A stretch of DNA of 64,000 nt from a virus, in the IMG/VR virus record IMGVR_UViG_3300028844_005393, positions 16,181 to 80,180 of that record. One strand, given 5' to 3'. A program made the translations under genes and the position numbers. Positions 15,396 through 48,463 of the stretch are shown piece by piece (positions within the stretch are counted from its first letter, which is position 1; each line of letters starts with the position of its first letter). Under the pieces are notes generated by a model that worked only from the letters and a program-made list of their open reading frames with translations, made no database searches and was not told where the DNA came from.

Positions 15396-16633
15396 TGATA
15401 AAATTTATTTACCCAGTCGCAAATTGCACAATGTATAGTAACTACGAAATATTAAATACAGGTGCAGACGAAATTATTGAAATTTCATCCGAGTTCACCC
15501 CGAGTTCAGGACCTATGGTAGCAAGAACTTTGATAAAATTTTCTGATGAAGATATTTTTACAAACTATAAAGAAACAAATTCATATATTCTTAATTTAAA
15601 GGTTGTAAAAAGTATAGAACTATCAGAAACATCAGAACTAGAAATATTTCCTGTAACACAAGAATGGGATGCCGGTGTTGGTAGATTTGCTGACAAGGAA
15701 ACAACTTATCCTGGTGCATCTTGGTTATACAGAAATGAAAAAAATGAACCTTGGGATGGTGGTCAAAATCAAGCCGAGTTTGATCAAGGTGGTGGTTCTT
15801 GGTTCTATAAATACTATGACACAGAACTTGAAATAGAGTCTGAATTAAACATGACATACTCTTTCAATAAAGTATCATCTGATGTAAAGGTTAATATCAC
15901 TAAACTTGTAGATTTTTGGAATGCAAATGCAATTGAAAATAATGGAATGTTATTAAAATTTAAAGATGACAAGAGTAAAAGAAACGGAAATGTTAAATTT
16001 TTCTCACAAAATACAAACACAATATATCGTCCTTACATAGAGATTGGAGTTGATGACTATAAGTTTAGTCCTTTTGTATATAAAACAAAAAATGTGTCGG
16101 GTTCTTCGAACACAGGATCACTAGAAACAGGATCACTAGAAACAGGATCACTAGAAACAGGATCACTAGAAACAGGATCACTAGAAACAGGATCACTAGA
16201 ATCTAGTTCATTGGACTCTGGTTCTGTAAAAATAAAATCACTACCAACTGATATAGAAGAAGTGGAAACCAATGACATAAATGTATTTGTAGAAAATGTA
16301 AATGAAACTTATTCTAAATCTGATATACATAAAATAGTGGTGGGTGTCCGTGAAAAGTATCCAAAGAAAAAATTTACAAACAGAATGAGGTACACAAGTA
16401 AAAATATAACTACAAAAAACATTTCTTTTTCAGTATTAGATGCTGAAACGCAAGAAGTAATTATAGATCACTCTGAATATACAAAAATTTCATGCGACAA
16501 AAACGGACATTATTTTAAATTTAATTTTGATTGCTTATCAAGAGGTCGTATGTATAAGTTTGTTTTACAACTAAATGATGAGGGATTTAGAGTAAAATAT
16601 GATGACACTAGAACATTTATGGTAATAAGTTAA
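15395..16633 (+). CDS. Virion structural protein (baseplate region) containing (TGSLE)6
   Basis: Operon context; NTGADEI, W..G.G, NNG.LLK, KFFS..T.TIY.P motifs. Confidence 0.65.
   Translation: MIKFIYPVANCTMYSNYEILNTGADEIIEISSEFTPSSGPMVARTLIKFSDEDIFTNYKETNSYILNLKVVKSIELSETSELEIFPVTQEWDAGVGRFADKETTYPGASWLYRNEKNEPWDGGQNQAEFDQGGGSWFYKYYDTELEIESELNMTYSFNKVSSDVKVNITKLVDFWNANAIENNGMLLKFKDDKSKRNGNVKFFSQNTNTIYRPYIEIGVDDYKFSPFVYKTKNVSGSSNTGSLETGSLETGSLETGSLETGSLETGSLESSSLDSGSVKIKSLPTDIEEVETNDINVFVENVNETYSKSDIHKIVVGVREKYPKKKFTNRMRYTSKNITTKNISFSVLDAETQEVIIDHSEYTKISCDKNGHYFKFNFDCLSRGRMYKFVLQLNDEGFRVKYDDTRTFMVIS
16112..16201 (+). repeat. Perfect 15-bp tandem repeat, 6 copies (ACAGGATCACTAGAA)
   Basis: Six nucleotide-identical in-frame units encoding TGSLE. 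Confidence 0.95.
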
Positions 16634-41149: not shown

Positions 41150-41695
41150 ATGGATATAGATCAAGCAAGAACAGCATCACAACAAACAGGAGCTCATAGA
41201 TGGACTCTCACGACAAATTTAAACAAATTGTATAAAAACGGCGAAGGAAGTGTTTATACAGGTAGAAAAGCTCCAAACGTTCCCACATCATCCAAAGCAC
41301 CACCTTTGAACAAGCAGATTTCTGAAGGTGTTAAGTTTTTTGGTTATGGTCGTGGTAATGTATCAAAGCGTCTTGGGGAAATGGGCAAAGATAAAGATTT
41401 AGGTACAATGGCCGTAGGAGGTGGAGCAGAAGGTGCATTCAGACAGGGTGATACATCATTCCTCGGTGGATTTAATACTTTCAGAGCACCACGTTCAGGT
41501 GAAAGTGATTTCGGTACAAACTTAATCACGTCTCGTGACGCAAGTTGGTACACCCAAGGTCTCACGGGTATCAAGAAGTACGGAAATGAGATTGCCGGAA
41601 TGGTAGGCAAGAACTTTGGAGCACGTGGTGGGGCATCTGAATCCCGTGGTGCTGATGGTTCTGGTGCAGGTGGTGTCGCTGGCAATCGCGCATAA
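41150..41695 (+). CDS. Gly-rich hypothetical protein
   Basis: GGAG RBS and an upstream ATATTTAT (41110-41117); visibly higher GC than its neighbours. Confidence 0.7.
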   Translation: MDIDQARTASQQTGAHRWTLTTNLNKLYKNGEGSVYTGRKAPNVPTSSKAPPLNKQISEGVKFFGYGRGNVSKRLGEMGKDKDLGTMAVGGGAEGAFRQGDTSFLGGFNTFRAPRSGESDFGTNLITSRDASWYTQGLTGIKKYGNEIAGMVGKNFGARGGASESRGADGSGAGGVAGNRA

Positions 41696-41745: not shown

Positions 41746-42276
41746 ATGCAAAATAAATCCTATTGTTTGGGGTTGGATATTAGTTCTACGGTGGTTGGTT
41801 ATTGTGTATCTACTTCTAAAGAAAAAGTAACCAATGCCGGTTATATAGATGTTCGCAAAGAAACGAGCATCAAAGAAAAAGCACATAAAGTTGCGAACGA
41901 ACTTGATAAATTAAATCTAGAACCCTCTGAGATTATCGTAGAAGATACATTAAGTGGGTTCGGTGGTGGACGAACAAGTCAACAGACCATTGTAAAGCTA
42001 TCAAAGTGCAATGCGGTAATTAGTTATGTCATCGAAGCACTGTATGAACTAGACGTGGAACACGTTAATGTGTCGTCTCTGCGTAAAGTAGTATTCGGTA
42101 AAAGTCGTGAACAAGGAGTTGATAGTAAAACTTTTGTACGTGAACAACTTGAGAAAAAGATTGATTTAAATCAATTTATTGTCTATAATAGTAGAAAAAA
42201 TTATGATAAAAGGAACTATGATATGTTAGACGCAACCGTGGCATCCTTGTATCATTGGTATACTATTGACAATTAA
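41746..42276 (+). CDS. RuvC-like Holliday junction resolvase
   Basis: LGLDIS....GY, IIVED, D..DA: the RNase H-fold acidic tetrad. Confidence 0.85.
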   Translation: MQNKSYCLGLDISSTVVGYCVSTSKEKVTNAGYIDVRKETSIKEKAHKVANELDKLNLEPSEIIVEDTLSGFGGGRTSQQTIVKLSKCNAVISYVIEALYELDVEHVNVSSLRKVVFGKSREQGVDSKTFVREQLEKKIDLNQFIVYNSRKNYDKRNYDMLDATVASLYHWYTIDN

Positions 42277-43202
42277 TGGGGATTTCGGAGCAAAAACTAC
42301 TTGCCTTGTTGCAGAAGGTATTAGGTGAAGGTAAAATCGTCTCTAAAGACGAAGCTATGTTTGTGTGTCCGTTTTCTCATCACAGAAAACCAAAGTTAGC
42401 AGTAAATCTATCTACACAACGATGGCAAAGTTGGATTGACACAAATGCTAAAGGTCGTAGTATCTTTTCGTTATTCAAAAGATTACAAGTTCCAAGCAAC
42501 TATTTTGATGAATTATCTCGTATTGTAAAACTTCCCAAAAGTTCACAAACACAAGAAACAAAAGAAGAATATGTTTCATTGCCTTATGAGTATAAAAAAT
42601 TAACCGAAACGCATACGGATTTTTCATATTCAAAAGCAATGAAGTATTTAAAAAATCGTGGAATTGAATCTTATGATATAGAACGATACGATATTGGATA
42701 TTGTGACAAAGGAGATTATGTTGGAAGAATTATTGTTCCATCGTATGATGCAGATAATAAATTAAATTATTTTCTAGCAAGAGATTTTACAGGTAATGCT
42801 TATTTGAAATACAAAAATCCTCCTGTTAGTAAAGATGTGGTTGTATTTGAAAATCAAATTGATTTCTCTGAACCACTTATTTTATGTGAGGGTGTATTTG
42901 ATGCGATTGCAATTCGTAGAAATGCTATTGCTTTACTTGGAAAGAATATTCCAAACAAATTAAAAATGCGACTTGTTCAACATGGTGTAAAAGAAGTCAG
43001 TATTGTTTTGGATAATGATGCGTTTAAAAATGCGTTGTATTTATCAGAATCACTTATGAATGATAACATCAAAGTGAGATTAGTCAGAATGGGATCAGAA
43101 GATGCCGCTGACTTGGGTTTTAAAAAGGTTATAGAAAGAATCAACTCAACCGACATTTTAGATTTTGGTCAGTTGATGCAACAGAAGTTATGCTTGAATT
43201 AA
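42276..43202 (+). CDS. DNA primase (Toprim), degenerate Zn-binding domain
   Basis: YL..RGI, GRIIVP, KYKNP, LCEGVFDA, LDND, DAAD. Confidence 0.9.
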   Translation: MGISEQKLLALLQKVLGEGKIVSKDEAMFVCPFSHHRKPKLAVNLSTQRWQSWIDTNAKGRSIFSLFKRLQVPSNYFDELSRIVKLPKSSQTQETKEEYVSLPYEYKKLTETHTDFSYSKAMKYLKNRGIESYDIERYDIGYCDKGDYVGRIIVPSYDADNKLNYFLARDFTGNAYLKYKNPPVSKDVVVFENQIDFSEPLILCEGVFDAIAIRRNAIALLGKNIPNKLKMRLVQHGVKEVSIVLDNDAFKNALYLSESLMNDNIKVRLVRMGSEDAADLGFKKVIERINSTDILDFGQLMQQKLCLN

Positions 43203-43894
43203 AAAATAAGTTAAAGAATGTAGAAAAAATATATCATCTAGCAGACATTCATATTCGCAATGTAAAACGTCACACCGAATATACAACCGTGTTTGACAAT
43301 TTCTATGAACAAGTAAAATCTGACAACTACGAAAATGCTATTATTTTCATTGGTGGGGATATTGCTCATGCAAAAACAGAAATGTCTCCTGAACTTATTA
43401 AGCAAATATCAAACTTTCTACGAAAGTGTGCCACGTTACACCCTACGGTTGTAATTGCAGGTAATCACGATTGTAATTTAAATAACCCTGACCGACTTGA
43501 TGTATTATCTCCTATTATGGATATGATGGACGATGATAATTTATATTATTTAAAAGATACAGGTGTATATAAAATCGGTGATGTTGCAATAAGTGTATTT
43601 GGTATATTTGAAGAACCAACCGAATATATACATGGAAATAAAATTGATGATCCGTCAATTAACACAAAGATTGCAGTTTATCACGGAGCAATACGAAGAA
43701 GCACAACCGATATTGGGTATATTGTGGTTGGAGGTGATTTAACTCTTCCTCAGTTTGATGGATATGATATTGTTATGCTTGGTGATATTCACAAGTACCA
43801 AGTGTTACAAGAATATAAAACTGAACATAGATTTATACCGGAAAGTAAACTTGATAAGTATAAACTTGATGGGTGGGACATTTGCAATGACTAA
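43190..43894 (+). CDS. Mre11/SbcD (gp47-like) nuclease, N-terminal fragment
   Basis: ADIH, GGD, AGNHD, YHG and GDIH phosphoesterase motifs. Lacks the following YxGS strand and cap domain. Confidence 0.88.
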   Translation: MLELKNKLKNVEKIYHLADIHIRNVKRHTEYTTVFDNFYEQVKSDNYENAIIFIGGDIAHAKTEMSPELIKQISNFLRKCATLHPTVVIAGNHDCNLNNPDRLDVLSPIMDMMDDDNLYYLKDTGVYKIGDVAISVFGIFEEPTEYIHGNKIDDPSINTKIAVYHGAIRRSTTDIGYIVVGGDLTLPQFDGYDIVMLGDIHKYQVLQEYKTEHRFIPESKLDKYKLDGWDICND

Positions 43895-44786
43895 GTTTTT
43901 AATAAGATGTAGAGATATTGACATCGGAGATGTTTTGTTTGCAAGTAGTATTGCAAAAAAACTTAAAGATGAAACTCCGTGGGAAACACCATGTCATATT
44001 GATTTTGATTCTAATTATTTACAAACTCTTGAACTATTAGATAACAATCCTTACATTGACAATGTTTTCTACAAAGATAGTGATGATGATTATACCAAAA
44101 TTTTTGATATAAATAAAAGTAGTCATGTCTTGGATGTATCTACTTCTGTTGTATCACAATATCAACAAATGTGTGGAATAAAAAGTTTCGACGATACCTT
44201 TGAAGTTTTTACAAATTCAATAAGTGACTACTCAATTAAATCTAGTATGAAAGAATTAATTGAGATAGATTATTGGACTAATGATTTAATAAAAATTTGT
44301 TATGTAATGGATTGGGACAGAAAAGGTTATCTATTAGACGAGCACGATTCAATTGTTATTGGAAATGAAATAAACAAAAGAGATACGCATTCAATAGTTG
44401 ATCCACTAAAAGAAACTAATAATATAATGTTATTTGCCATTGGAATTGAATCCCGTGAATCAAAAAACTTTCCTAGTATAAACTCGGCAAGTAAATTTAG
44501 TTTTACTGCTAGTTTAATTAAAAACTCTGATTATGTAATAGGTCCCGAGGGGTGTCTTACTAATATATCATCTGCACTGGGAACTCCTACAATAATCACC
44601 ACTGATTATATTCACCACACTTATGGTCCAAACGGAGTTAGAACAGATAAATCTAAAAAATACACTCCTCCGTTTTTAGGTCCTTGTAAGTATTTTCCAA
44701 ATGGAAATCATACACATTTAGATCCATATCTTAGTGATCGTGAAGTTGGAAACGAAATTTTAAAAATTGTGACAAATGGAAGATAA
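43887..44786 (+). CDS. GT9-like (heptosyltransferase family, GT-B) glycosyltransferase
   Basis: ATG at 43887; IGDVLFAS..AKKLK, ELLDNNPYIDNV, SLIKNSDYVIGPEG..TNISSALGTPTI. Confidence 0.75.
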   Translation: MTKFLIRCRDIDIGDVLFASSIAKKLKDETPWETPCHIDFDSNYLQTLELLDNNPYIDNVFYKDSDDDYTKIFDINKSSHVLDVSTSVVSQYQQMCGIKSFDDTFEVFTNSISDYSIKSSMKELIEIDYWTNDLIKICYVMDWDRKGYLLDEHDSIVIGNEINKRDTHSIVDPLKETNNIMLFAIGIESRESKNFPSINSASKFSFTASLIKNSDYVIGPEGCLTNISSALGTPTIITTDYIHHTYGPNGVRTDKSKKYTPPFLGPCKYFPNGNHTHLDPYLSDREVGNEILKIVTNGR

Positions 44787-47376
44787 CGAAAAGTACATAA
44801 AAGTAAAAAGACACAATACCAATAAACCTGTCGTGGTTTATTCCGGTAGCATGATTCAACAAAACCACGGAGAAAAACCACATGGACATGGGTATGTATT
44901 ATGGGATGTGGCAAATCGTACACACGTGCACCACGAAGTTGTAAATGATTACGGATATTATACAATAGAAGTACGTGACGGAACGTGTGTTAGTGATTTA
45001 AGTAAACTTCCAAAAAAAGCAAGACTTCGTGTAAAGGTGTTTAACACAACTGCAACAGAAACAAAAGAAATTATTGCGGAAATCCGAAAACAAACAAGTA
45101 TAACAGATTTAAATGTAACACGATGTGATGCTATATCTGAAGCAAAAAAGTTTGATCGTGATAATAAATTTGATTTTGGTGATATATCTTCTATACAAAT
45201 ACAAAATGATTTAATAGAAGATTATCTTCGTAGGAATTTTGTTGTTGATGATGAACAAGTAAAAACTGCTCTTGATATTAACAAAGAAACAAACGACAAA
45301 CTTATTGTAAAAGAAGTTCTTCGTAATTGTATTTGGAAACCAAAGAAGTTTGAGTTTGGAAATATGTTCAGTTACGGAGATGGAAATGTAATAGACTTTT
45401 CAAATATGAAAAGTGTTATGGGATTATTTGCATCTAACGCAAGTGGTAAAAGCAGTGTTATGAGTGCATTAAGTTTTTGTTTGTTTGATAAATGTGATCG
45501 TGCGTTTAAGGCTGCTCATGTACTGAATACACAAACAGAATCTTTTTATTGTAAATTAAACTTTGAAATATCGGGAGTAAACTATTTCATAGACAGAACT
45601 GCAACTACCAAAAAGAATGGTGATGTAACTGTTGTAGTTGACTTTTGGAAGTTAGATGAAGATGGTCAACAACTATCATTAAACGGAGAACAACGAGCAG
45701 GAACTAATGCAATTATCCGTGACCATGTTGGTTCTTATGATGACTTTGTTTTAACAACATTAAGTTTACAAAACAACAATGCTATTTTTATTGATAAAAG
45801 TCAAAGTGAACGAAAAGACTTACTTGCTCAATTTATGGGCATTGATACATTTGATCAATTGCATACAACTGCATCTGAAGATGTTAAAGAAATTAATGCT
45901 TTATTAAAACGATTTAATCGTGAAGATTTTGATGAAACATTAGCAGATGTAAAAGAAAAACTTGAAAAAATAAATGAACAATATAATAAGCAAGATAGTA
46001 AAACAAATATAGCACTACTTGAGCAAAAAAGATTAAACAAAGAACTTGCTGATAAAAATTCTTTATTTAAAACTTGTTCATTTGATGAAACTGCGGTTGA
46101 TATAGATAAACTTGAATTTACAAAAAATAATTTAAAAGAACGACTGAATACCGCCGAGGAAAACAGAGAATCTGAATCTGAACGAAAAAAACAACTTGCA
46201 AACGAAAAGAAAATGTGTGTACGCAAAATGTCTGATCTTGAGGGGGTCAGTGATAGTTATGTTTATGTTTTAAAAGTTCGTGAAGAAATAACAAAAGTAG
46301 ATAAAGACCTTGCGGTTTTACGCACTTCTGTAAATGCAAAGTTAGATAAATTAAAGCAATATGATAGTCACGAATATGATCCAAAATGTAAGTTTTGCGT
46401 AAACAATTCAAAGAACTTAATTGAAAGTGCAGAGCAAACAAAAACTGAATTGGATAAAGACAAAGCAGCTGCAGATGATCTTGTTGATCAAAAAACTGAT
46501 TTAGCAAATATACTCGATGATAATAAAGATGTAGAAAAAAACTACGAATTATTAAATGAATTAAAAAACAAATCAAGTCAACTTGTATACGAAATAAACG
46601 AAGCAGATTCCAAAGTTTTGGCACTATCTAGCATGATTCAATCACTTGGAAAAGATATAGTAATAAATGATAAAAATATAAAAGAATTTTACGAGTGTAA
46701 AGATATAATTGAATACAATCAAAAACTTCAAATAGAAGTAGATGAATTACAAGCAAAATTATTAAAAGTAAACTCAATAGCAAATACAGAAAGTACTAAA
46801 TTACAAACTTTGTTTGGTGAAGTAAAAATTATAGAAAAAGAACACGAAGATGTTCTTGTGTCAATTGAAGAAGCAAAAAATTATGAAAGAAAGAAACGAG
46901 GATACGAATTATACCTTGATGCAGTAAAACGGGATGGTATTTCATATGAATTAATTTCCAAAACAATTCCGAGTATTGAAAGTGAAGTTAATAACATTCT
47001 TTCTCAAATTGTTGACTTTGGTATGAATCTTGAAATGGATGGAAAGCACATTTACTCAAAGATTACATACGAAGATCGTCATTGGCCACTTGAAATGTGT
47101 AGTGGTATGGAACGGTTCATAAGTAGTATTGCTATGCGTGTAGCACTTATCAATGTAAGCAGTCTTCCTCGTTCTAATTTCCTCGTTATTGACGAGGGTT
47201 GGGGTTCACTTGACGGTGATAATATCAGTAGTGTATTTAATCTCTTTACATACCTCAAAGGTCAGTTTGAGTTTATATTAGTTATCAGTCATTTGGATGT
47301 TATGCGTGATATGGTAGATGAAATTATAGAAATTCAAAAGGACGGATCATTTAGTAAGATAAAATACGGAGCATAA
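44776..47376 (+). CDS. Mre11 C-terminal fragment fused to a Rad50/SbcC (gp46-like) ATPase
   Basis: N-terminal VVYSGSMIQQNHGE..HG; Walker A NASGKSS; coiled coil with CKFC hook; CSGMERF signature; Walker B VIDEGWG; ISH. Confidence 0.9.
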   Translation: MEDNEKYIKVKRHNTNKPVVVYSGSMIQQNHGEKPHGHGYVLWDVANRTHVHHEVVNDYGYYTIEVRDGTCVSDLSKLPKKARLRVKVFNTTATETKEIIAEIRKQTSITDLNVTRCDAISEAKKFDRDNKFDFGDISSIQIQNDLIEDYLRRNFVVDDEQVKTALDINKETNDKLIVKEVLRNCIWKPKKFEFGNMFSYGDGNVIDFSNMKSVMGLFASNASGKSSVMSALSFCLFDKCDRAFKAAHVLNTQTESFYCKLNFEISGVNYFIDRTATTKKNGDVTVVVDFWKLDEDGQQLSLNGEQRAGTNAIIRDHVGSYDDFVLTTLSLQNNNAIFIDKSQSERKDLLAQFMGIDTFDQLHTTASEDVKEINALLKRFNREDFDETLADVKEKLEKINEQYNKQDSKTNIALLEQKRLNKELADKNSLFKTCSFDETAVDIDKLEFTKNNLKERLNTAEENRESESERKKQLANEKKMCVRKMSDLEGVSDSYVYVLKVREEITKVDKDLAVLRTSVNAKLDKLKQYDSHEYDPKCKFCVNNSKNLIESAEQTKTELDKDKAAADDLVDQKTDLANILDDNKDVEKNYELLNELKNKSSQLVYEINEADSKVLALSSMIQSLGKDIVINDKNIKEFYECKDIIEYNQKLQIEVDELQAKLLKVNSIANTESTKLQTLFGEVKIIEKEHEDVLVSIEEAKNYERKKRGYELYLDAVKRDGISYELISKTIPSIESEVNNILSQIVDFGMNLEMDGKHIYSKITYEDRHWPLEMCSGMERFISSIAMRVALINVSSLPRSNFLVIDEGWGSLDGDNISSVFNLFTYLKGQFEFILVISHLDVMRDMVDEIIEIQKDGSFSKIKYGA

Positions 47377-47419
47377 AACATATTTAGATATATATTTATT
47401 ATATACCTGAAATGTATTT

Positions 47420-48463
47420 ATGAAAAATTCCGAAGAAAGACAAACACAAGAAGAAACCCTTATTAAAGCAGGATTGCGTAAAGGGTATTTTACACTCGTA
47501 GAAGGAGTATACGATCCTGGTATTTTAAAAGCAGTATTTTTAGCAGGTGGTCCGGGTTCTGGTAAATCTGCTACGGTTGATACAATATTTGATTTTCCAC
47601 CCGAGACAACCAATTTGTCTCCAAGTGGATTAAAAATAGTTAATAGTGATCCTGCGTTTGAAATACTCCTAAAGAAAGCAGGACACGATTTAAATTTATC
47701 TAAAATGGATGATGAAACTTTTAGTAAAGTAACGAGTGATGATCCAAATAGTATTCGTTCTCGTGCAAAGAAAATTATGTTAAAGCAATTTGAGATGTTT
47801 AAATACAATCGTCTTGGTGTTATTGTTGATGGAACTGGTGATAACTATAACAAAATATCCAAACAAAAGAAAGAACTAGAAAAACTAGGATACGATTGTT
47901 ATATGGTGTTTGTTAATACAACACTTGATGTAGCACAACAGAGAAACGCAATGCGTAAAAGAAAACTTCCAAGAAAAATAGTAAAAGATATTTGGACAGA
48001 TGTACAAAAAAATATAGGTAAGTTGCAAGGTGCATTTGGATCAAATTTTACAATTGTAGATAACTCAGAAGATACTCGCAGTAAAAAGAAACCAGGAAGA
48101 CTAGATTTAGTTCCAGTTGTTTTAAAACAAACTGCAAGATTTATTTCAAAACCAGTCCGCAATCCAATTGGCAAGAATTGGATTAAAATGATGATGGCAC
48201 ATGATAAAATGAGTAAAAGTGGTGACAAAATAAATCGTATGAACGAAGAACTCGATATGGTTTCAATGGAAGATGTAGTTCTTCCTATGGATTTAGAAAG
48301 ACATTTAAGTAGATCAATATATGTTATCAAAAAGTTTAATTTAAATGAAAAAAAGAACTTAGCAGTATTATCAAGATTAGTTGAAAGTTTAGAATTAGAC
48401 AGAGGTCAAGTAAACAAATATTTTCACAAAATTAGAACACTAAAGTTTAAAGGAGAAAAATGA
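47420..48463 (+). CDS. P-loop kinase (Zeta-toxin/AAA_33/PNK-like)
   Basis: FLAGGPGSGKS, VNSD, IVDGT, A..RN..R.R lid. Confidence 0.85.
   Translation: MKNSEERQTQEETLIKAGLRKGYFTLVEGVYDPGILKAVFLAGGPGSGKSATVDTIFDFPPETTNLSPSGLKIVNSDPAFEILLKKAGHDLNLSKMDDETFSKVTSDDPNSIRSRAKKIMLKQFEMFKYNRLGVIVDGTGDNYNKISKQKKELEKLGYDCYMVFVNTTLDVAQQRNAMRKRKLPRKIVKDIWTDVQKNIGKLQGAFGSNFTIVDNSEDTRSKKKPGRLDLVPVVLKQTARFISKPVRNPIGKNWIKMMMAHDKMSKSGDKINRMNEELDMVSMEDVVLPMDLERHLSRSIYVIKKFNLNEKKNLAVLSRLVESLELDRGQVNKYFHKIRTLKFKGEK

Follow-up and report, generated by a model that had tools for sequence, protein, structure and literature searches.

Here we describe a viral locus in which the nuclease part of an Mre11-Rad50 (SbcD-SbcC) enzyme is encoded in two pieces, with a gene for a predicted glycosyltransferase lying between them. 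The locus is found in a stretch of 64,000 nucleotides (nt) of viral DNA, positions 16,181 to 80,180 of IMG/VR record IMGVR_UViG_3300028844_005393, hereafter referred to as the window. The window is part of an 80-kb viral record that is roughly 41% complete. The explanation which we favour, and to which we assign a probability of about 0.8, is that a homing-endonuclease cassette split the gene, that Mre11-Rad50 became a two-chain enzyme, and that a glycosyltransferase gene later took over the gap.

The locus consists of three co-oriented genes on the + strand, each overlapping the next and each in a different frame, as read from the translations of the open reading frames (ORFs). All coordinates given in a preliminary description of this DNA, made from the letters and the ORF translations alone, were re-checked and are correct (Table 1). 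The upstream gene (the N piece) matches the Pfam Metallophos profile PF00149 with 35.2 bits (cutoff 21.5), residues 13-203 covering the whole profile, and the SbcD-like PHROGs family phrog_100 with an E-value of 1.7e-12. Phosphoesterase motifs I-V are present in order, and DIH, GDIAH, GNHD, YHG and GDIH, the last being motif V, are invariant in the alignment. The N-piece ORF ends in ...GDIHKYQVLQEY followed by KTEHRFIPESKLDKYKLDGWDICND. The downstream gene (the C piece) starts with MEDNEKYIKVKRHNTNKPVVVYSGSMIQQNHGE; after 18 residues of its own, it reads VVVYSGSMIQQNHGE..GHGYVLWDV, i.e. the segment found downstream of motif V in relatives, and it then runs on into Rad50/SbcC. Walker A, the coiled coil with its CxxC hook, the signature and Walker B of the Rad50/SbcC ABC ATPase could all be read in the translation of the C piece, and this part matches the SbcC-like PHROGs family phrog_77 with an E-value of 2.1e-43, while in Pfam both SMC_N (25.2 bits, cutoff 40) and SbcC_Walker_B (16.8 bits, cutoff 27) remained below cutoff. 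No terminator-like site was found between 43190 and 47376, and promoter-like sites are no more frequent than in shuffled sequence. The preliminary description had read this locus as a split Mre11 gene, the C half of which is fused to Rad50, with overlaps of 8 and 11 nt and with extra peptides at both new termini. The coordinates, the Pfam and PHROGs matches and the alignment to unsplit relatives all bear out this reading.

In these unsplit relatives, both pieces are found in one chain. Microcystis phage Mel-JY01 has a single coding sequence of 1066 amino acids (aa) which aligns end to end with both window pieces, and huge-phage record LR756501 has a single 1202-aa ORF for Mre11-Rad50. At about 110 distinct viral-contig loci, with identities of about 50%, motif V and the YxGS strand are separated by a gap of 0-46 nt and are in one frame; nearly all of these loci are free of stop codons. 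From the approximately 110 one-frame loci together with Mel-JY01 and LR756501, it follows that a fused, single-chain Mre11-Rad50 is the usual state in this phage group. A literature search for natural Mre11-Rad50 fusions and for Mel-JY01 gave no results. The loop between motif V and the YxGS strand in the unsplit forms is about 8 to 18 residues long. The two loci that are not free of stops or frame changes, L062 with one stop codon and L095 with what appears to be a frameshift within the N part, are otherwise unsplit and look damaged, which could be due either to sequencing errors or to decay.

The split arrangement was found in 18 IMG/VR contigs, with the same three genes and the same overlaps, and with N pieces that are 76-95% identical to that of the window. 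This number is a lower bound, since more turned up in a later scan. Both junctions are also bridged by contigs of a marine metagenome study carried out independently (run X3), which span 43507-44557 and 44532-45076. A misassembly is ruled out by these contigs across both junctions and by the at least 18 independent viral contigs. The clade to which the window belongs is monophyletic (support 100), and all of its members carry the glycosyltransferase gene in the gap. Within this clade, where the proportion of synonymous differences (pS) is about 0.6, the ratio of non-synonymous to synonymous rates (dN/dS) indicates purifying selection on each part of the locus: 0.09 for the core of the N piece, 0.10 for the peptide at its end, 0.19 for the peptide at the start of the C piece, 0.04-0.06 for the rest of the Mre11 part and 0.20 for the gene in the gap (the cargo).

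Alignment to unsplit relatives shows that the two new termini carry extra residues, about 22 at the end of the N piece (the tail) and about 15 at the start of the C piece (the head). When the N piece was searched against 5.8 billion proteins, restricted to those of similar lengths, many N pieces of 220-250 aa were obtained, at 45-58% identity and on long contigs. All of them end in the motif E..E[IV]DE..L..YL..GWE, with E, Y, G and W invariant. The window tail is a weakly acidic form of this family motif and the window head a weakly basic form of the family motif M.KK.KIKR. Across the family, tails are acidic, with a mean net charge of -7.5, and heads are basic, with net charges of +4 to +7; the corresponding values are -2 and +2 in the window, -2 to -5 and +1 to +3 in its clade, and +1 for the head of the huge-phage record LR756508. 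Judging from their conservation across the family and from the purifying selection acting on them in the clade, the tail and the head are functional protein.

Comparison of homologous loci, as suggested in the preliminary description, revealed the same breakpoint with different cargo or with none. LR756508 is split at the same point, and its tail (..EDELEKYLNSGWKLDEN..) and head (..DDKYRVKR..) are recognisably similar to those of the window. In its gap lies a gene for a protein of 305 aa, which combines zinc ribbons with a TnsA-like PD-(D/E)xK domain (Pfam 27.2 bits, cutoff 26.5; phrog_1271). A degenerate DNA pattern, composed of GDIH and the family tail motif, yielded 12 further loci (L175 to L186), the gaps of which are described in Table 1. 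Nuclease genes or remnants of them are present at the breakpoint in L177, L178, L001 and L181.

Table 1 Features of the split Mre11-Rad50 locus, of its surroundings and of the corresponding gap in relatives. Positions are those of the window unless a locus is named.
Feature	Position	Strand	Description
N piece, Mre11/SbcD, 234 aa	43190..43894	+	Motifs I-V (DIH, GDIAH, GNHD, YHG, GDIH); Pfam PF00149; phrog_100
Tail peptide, about residues 210-234 of N piece	43817..43891	+	Absent from unsplit relatives (alignments)
8-nt overlap, ATGACTAA	43887..43894	+	N-piece stop inside cargo start; same in 18 of 18 clade loci
Cargo gene, 299 aa	43887..44786	+	ATG at 43887; GT-B fold, GT9-like glycosyltransferase candidate
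11-nt overlap, ATGGAAGATAA	44776..44786	+	C-piece start inside cargo end; 11-14 nt across clade
C piece, 866 aa	44776..47376	+	Head peptide, remaining Mre11 including capping domain, then complete Rad50/SbcC
Head peptide, MEDNEKYIKVKRHNTNKP, residues 1-18 of C piece	44776..44829	+	Absent from unsplit relatives (alignments)
Remaining Mre11 part	44830..45345	+	Core beta-strands VVVYSGS and GYVLWDV; capping domain; helical linker; alignment to unsplit Mre11-Rad50
Rad50/SbcC part	45346..47376	+	Walker A ASNASGKSS, coiled coil with CKFC hook, signature CSGME, Walker B LVIDEG
RuvC-like resolvase	41746-42276	+	Context; kept upstream in split and unsplit relatives
DnaG-type primase	42276-43202	+	Context; kept upstream in split and unsplit relatives
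Gap in L177 and L178			Vsr/DUF559-like genes; PHROG homing-endonuclease families, E 1e-9 to 4e-13
Gap in L181			70-aa TnsA-like remnant
Gap in L183			Partial ORF ended by contig edge; Cys-rich motifs; NUMOD3 match below cutoff; match to homing-endonuclease phrog_3339
Gap in L184	L184:4552-4884	-	111-aa protein, PHROG 12224 (E 6e-42), function unknown; second non-endonuclease cargo at the breakpoint
Gap in L182			Short spacer (about 190 nt) with stop codons; no convincing gene
Gap in L176 and L179			Empty; N and C halves overlap directly
Gap in L180 and L186			Empty; halves in one frame, parted by a single in-frame stop codon
L175 and L185			No gap; tail and head joined in frame within one 1078-aa Mre11-Rad50 ORF

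Two of the states listed in Table 1 are worth describing further. In L175 (L175:2206-5442, - strand), as well as in L185, the tail-head segment is continuous and in frame (..YLEDGWEIVEENKIRKAQ..), and in L182, a close relative of L175, this segment is interrupted by stops. By their sequence, L175 and L185 would represent either a rejoined gene or the ancestral in-frame form. In L180 (L180:10787-13312, - strand) and also in L186, the Mre11 N piece has an in-frame insertion of about 310 aa directly after GNHD (motif III), which starts with CFTPNHEVL, contains two LAGLIDADG-like blocks and ends with ..ISGN before CNLNN; this insertion is a probable intein with a homing-endonuclease domain.

To describe how the two chains may assemble, a complex model was computed of the N piece with residues 1-125 of the C piece, together with three controls. 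The model has an interface score, the interaction prediction score from aligned errors (ipSAE), of 0.89, while the best of the three controls scored 0.00; the same mark is reached by 58 of 80 solved complexes and by 2 of 110 mismatched pairs, although these benchmark counts hold only roughly here because our own alignments were used for the complex model. At least 94% of contacts are shared between the runs, and the partner has a predicted local distance difference test score (pLDDT) of at least 83. The best-defined contacts are made by strands, residues 12-16 of the N piece (its first strand) contacting residues 40-45 of the C piece (GYVLWDV), and residues 194-197 of the N piece (the motif V strand) contacting residues 20-22 of the C piece (VVY). 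These contacts support a view in which the C piece returns two core strands of the phosphoesterase sandwich to the N piece, which on its own is unlikely to form a complete fold. The model thus supports non-covalent binding of the two fragments to rebuild one nuclease domain, a prediction made with high confidence and in line with the preliminary description, which had proposed that the fragments rejoin.

The preliminary description had gone further in proposing that the terminal peptides form a strand-complementing clasp. That the termini matter is consistent with their conservation, with the purifying selection acting on them and with their position in the predicted interface, which includes tail residues 210-219, 221, 224 and 227-232 and head residues 5-14 and 16-19. 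However, the strand complementation itself would come mainly from the core strands VVVYSGS and GYVLWDV of the C piece, and a clasp formed by tail and head is something that we infer. In a single-chain fold of the in-frame relative L175, the N domain is predicted with a pLDDT of about 90 and the tail forms a strand and an amphipathic helix, with a pLDDT of 57-83.

We next turn to the cargo. An AlphaFold2 model of its product (pLDDT 72) has a GT-B fold, with two Rossmann domains, and is closest to GT9 enzymes. Foldseek matches the model to 3tov with an E-value of 8.7e-8. With VIA-align, Z is 16.8 for 3tov_B (root-mean-square deviation 3.8 Å, 246 residues aligned), 15.9 for WaaF (1psw), 15.0 for WaaC (6dfe) and 14.3 for the protein heptosyltransferase TibC, and does not exceed 11 for other GT-B families or chains. 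Thus, the cargo shares with the GT9 heptosyltransferases (WaaC, WaaF and TibC; PDB 2h1h, 1psw, 4rb4 and 3tov) the two-Rossmann GT-B fold, with Z of 14-17 over about 235-245 residues, but it differs from them in that identity is only 9-13% and in that, at 299 aa, it is shorter. No Pfam or PHROG family is matched above threshold: Glyco_transf_9 gives no match at E-values up to 0.01, the sole Pfam match is to DUF354 at 17.9 bits (below the cutoff of 22), and no nuclease match was found for the cargo gene in PHROG or Pfam. Because the Glyco_transf_9 sequence profile is unmatched, we file the cargo as GT9-like and not as a member of the family. The cargo product is best described as a candidate glycosyltransferase, predicted from a GT-B fold closest to GT9. 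Across the clade, many of its residues do not vary, among them those of an N-terminal GD motif and of a C-terminal G.EGCLTN.SSALG.

Homologues of the cargo, at 29-39% identity, occur in other viral contigs, where no Mre11 or Rad50 is found within 5 kb and where the neighbours of the distant homologues are genes for a PfkB-type kinase, NAD-dependent epimerases, GT2 and GT7. The cargo belongs to an ordinary phage glycan-pathway gene family. No second copy of the glycosyltransferase was found in the 80-kb record. The simplest reading is that of a single capture event, in which the glycosyltransferase gene probably replaced an endonuclease gene; in other words, the glycosyltransferase looks like a secondary replacement. 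Two of the distant homologues lie in phage glycan clusters (L187:3471-8352 and L193:3536-7852) containing a PfkB-type kinase, two NAD-dependent epimerase/dehydratases, GT2, GT7 and a KAS III-like enzyme.

The history of the tail-cargo-head block was examined in trees. The insert state requires 13 changes on a FastTree of 161 sequences built from core columns only, the strongly supported branches of which force 8 changes, and 12 on an IQ-TREE of 59 rows. For these 59 rows (N piece only, model LG+G4), the approximately unbiased (AU) test rejects a single clade of all insert-bearers, with a difference in log-likelihood of 369 and p = 1.6e-36. Shallow clades of unsplit genes have split N pieces nested within them; P0062, for instance, shares 85% identity with the unsplit L092 over residues 1-195. 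From these sequence comparisons, we conclude that the block has apparently been gained or lost as a unit many times. Endonuclease homing, together with conversion by empty alleles, would be expected to produce such a pattern.

In the mechanism which we propose, Mre11 and Rad50 are as a rule one polypeptide in this phage group. A mobile cassette built around a free-standing homing-endonuclease gene would have entered (or been lost) many times at a surface loop located just after motif V. Such a cassette would add to the upstream part about 22 aa of acidic tail, followed by a stop codon, and would give the downstream part a start codon of its own and about 15 aa of basic head. The enzyme would then be made as two proteins which reassemble without covalent joining, with tail and head at the seam, and with the C piece giving back two core beta-strands and the capping domain to the N piece. 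In the marine clade of the window, the endonuclease gene would have been replaced once by the GT9-like GT-B gene, which is kept under selection. This gene is probably co-transcribed with both of its neighbours and translationally coupled to them through the 8-nt and 11-nt overlaps.

Several points weigh against this mechanism. Firstly, the window's gap contains no endonuclease remnant, and the replacement of an endonuclease is for this reason deduced from relatives. Secondly, in a tree of 39 full-length rows under a mixture model, which is the better model, well-supported branches force one change only and insert-bearers branch deep; because strongly supported branches force a single change, an early gain followed by many losses is conceivable for these 39 rows. 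Thirdly, since head and tail are far less charged than is the norm for the family, an electrostatic clasp may be weak in the window's clade. Fourthly, the two pieces are halves of a fold with solved structures, and the high score of the complex model may on that account reflect likeness to, or memory of, solved Mre11 structures. In the single-chain fold of L175, moreover, residues 219-292, which include the head, are below a pLDDT of 50. Finally, RNA contigs from three metatranscriptome runs lie within 43651-43879 and 44446-44735 and bridge neither junction, being too sparse to exclude splicing directly; the joints listed in these runs have sides of 21-29 nt and look foreign.

Among alternative explanations, the one that fares best is that part of the family has long had the tail-head segment as an in-frame loop or mini-domain, into which endonucleases and other genes were later inserted repeatedly, the short-loop unsplit forms having arisen by loss and the ends not having been brought by a cassette. 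L175 and L185, which have the segment in frame, the deep position of insert-bearers in the 39-row tree with its single forced change, and the longer loops of some unsplit forms (LQEYNEDENKPVIVY), which are similar to the first part of the tail and the last part of the head, all point in this direction. On the other hand, split N pieces nest within shallow clades of short-loop unsplit genes, as P0062 does next to L092, the AU test rejects one clade of insert-bearers, and L182, close to L175, has the same segment broken by stops, so that L175 could equally be a rejoined gene. We regard an old loop as unlikely.

That the split has inactivated the nuclease is very unlikely. Under such a scenario, either the pieces would be decaying, or the N piece, which has all the metal-binding motifs, would be a lone, different phosphoesterase, with only Rad50 still in use. 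Strong purifying selection on both pieces, including the Mre11 part of the C piece (dN/dS 0.04-0.10 at a pS of about 0.6), speaks against decay, as does the stability of the arrangement in more than 18 contigs; the complex model, for its part, places two core strands of the fold in the C piece.

A still less probable scenario is repair at the RNA level, in which a self-splicing intron or a ribosomal bypass of the cargo region would yield one continuous Mre11-Rad50 chain. Phage DNA-metabolism genes often have group I introns with endonuclease ORFs, and the RNA-library contigs are, as mentioned above, too sparse to show the junctions. However, a search of 42000-48000 with Rfam for group I or group II introns returned 0 matches at E-values up to 1, and the ends of the insert are conserved as protein, not as RNA (dN/dS of 0.10 and 0.19; E, Y, G and W invariant over N pieces of 45-58% identity). 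The cargo overlaps both of its neighbours and the three genes occupy three frames, cargo-free relatives retain the stop and the restart, and the in-frame relative retains tail and head inside one protein. A gap of about 900 nt is also far longer than known bypasses. Protein trans-splicing, with tail and head acting as split-intein halves that ligate the pieces, is hardly credible: fractured phage genes in which split-intein halves flank a free-standing endonuclease are reported as common in metagenomes (PMC2677866) and a probable intein is present elsewhere in the same gene in L180 and L186, but the about 37-40 aa of tail and head together are not enough for a Hint fold, a Pfam search returned neither a Hint nor an intein family, the tail begins with a residue other than Cys or Ser, the head end is without His-Asn and is followed by Val or Ala, L175 retains the segment in a continuous 1078-aa ORF, and an SbcD-like locus reported by Dassa et al. 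is described there as being without a split intein (PMC2677866).

This last locus is the closest known counterpart to that of the window. Dassa et al. (2009, Nucleic Acids Res 37:2560, PMC2677866) describe a Global Ocean Sampling (GOS) locus from Lake Gatun with N and C halves of an SbcD-like protein, a Vsr-like endonuclease ORF between them and no split intein. Between consecutive conserved motifs, it has 25 extra C-terminal and 9 extra N-terminal residues, and its endonuclease ORF runs into the downstream gene; in loci of this type the 3’ end of the inserted ORF overlaps the downstream half by 6-69 bp. The window resembles what is described of it in several respects: co-oriented N and C halves of one nuclease domain, with unsplit homologues that align across the junction; extra residues at both new termini that are absent from unsplit homologues (about 22 and 15, compared to 25 and 9); and an insert whose 3’ end overlaps the downstream half (by 11 nt in the window, 11-14 nt in its clade). 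The relatives L177 and L178 even carry the same kind of endonuclease, Vsr/DUF559-like. The Lake Gatun locus is the window's arrangement with its original cargo. The window differs from it in having a GT9-like gene in the gap instead of a Vsr-like endonuclease, and extends what is described there: its downstream half continues into a full Rad50, a whole clade has the arrangement in fixed form, and conservation of and selection on the tail and head motifs are seen over many loci. The preliminary description had suggested that the split created a safe site for cargo insertion inside a gene assumed to be essential; the site appears instead to be the scar of a recurrent homing-endonuclease cassette, the split having been noted for an SbcD-like gene in 2009 (PMC2677866).

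The precedent invoked in the preliminary description, Aeromonas phage Aeh1 nrdA split by mobE, is a real one. Crona et al. (2010, Nucleic Acids Res 39:1381, PMC3045599) showed that the split Aeh1 NrdA cannot do without its insertion-derived tails if it is to be active, and they proposed tails of this kind as perhaps a general solution. In Aeh1 as in the window, insertion of a free-standing endonuclease would have split a DNA-metabolism enzyme, oppositely charged tails that came with the insertion would be kept in the mature proteins, and the two pieces would assemble with neither RNA nor protein splicing. There are also differences. The polarity is reversed, the upstream tail being basic and the downstream tail acidic in Aeh1, and the upstream tail being acidic and the downstream head basic in the window's family. 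The enzyme and the tails differ; the Aeh1 tails are described as unique and without database matches, while those of the window's family are a conserved family. Finally, the Aeh1 tails have been tested biochemically and serve the dimerisation of heterodimers and not the joining of pieces (PMC3045599), whereas the window is known from sequence and a model. Among other cases cited in PMC3045599 and PMC2677866, the T4 topoisomerase gp39/gp60 is split by mobA, while in Aeromonas phage 25 a GIY-YIG endonuclease gene splits the gp43 DNA polymerase. As is proposed for the window, replication or repair genes are broken by free-standing endonuclease cassettes and the products work as two chains; unlike in the window, the targets and the endonuclease families are others, and the passages that cite these cases do not report a non-endonuclease cargo in the gap.

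The split and the extra ends have thus been known since Dassa et al. (2009), and functional tails on a split gene since Crona et al. (2010). What is new here is the presence of a glycosyltransferase instead of an endonuclease, the finding that a single-chain enzyme gave rise to a downstream half in which Mre11C is fused to Rad50, and the wide occurrence of the tail and head motifs, together with their conservation and the selection on them. A more far-reaching idea, which we consider distinctly improbable, is that tail and head each make up one half of a small heterodimerising module, which is portable: it would move along with the endonuclease cassette and allow the latter to split an enzyme that nevertheless stays functional. 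The gap would then be a co-regulated expression slot in a DNA-metabolism operon, open to other genes, and the GT9-like transferase found here would perhaps act on the phage DNA-metabolism machinery or on DNA, and not on a glycan.

Two observations concern the surroundings of the locus. Just upstream of the RuvC-like gene, at window positions 41150-41695, there is a 181-aa glycine-rich ORF, which lies within an island of guanine-cytosine content of 0.42-0.48 against a background of about 0.30. After Rad50, at 47420-48463, lies a gene resembling P-loop kinases of the Zeta-toxin/AAA_33 type (Pfam Zeta_toxin, E-value 1.1e-10), the position of which is conserved throughout the clade.

For annotation, the 234-aa “SbcD” and 866-aa “SbcC” genes should be treated as the two parts of a single Mre11-Rad50 enzyme. 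The tail and head motifs, spread over many diverged loci, offer a natural and well-sampled test case for the idea of Crona et al. (2010) that mobile elements may bring their own protein “clasps”, and the two peptides could serve as assembly tags for split proteins. Under the explanation we favour, the locus illustrates a possible fate of genes broken up by a selfish endonuclease: the split would at first be tolerated, would later become fixed, and would leave a gap that an ordinary auxiliary gene comes to occupy.

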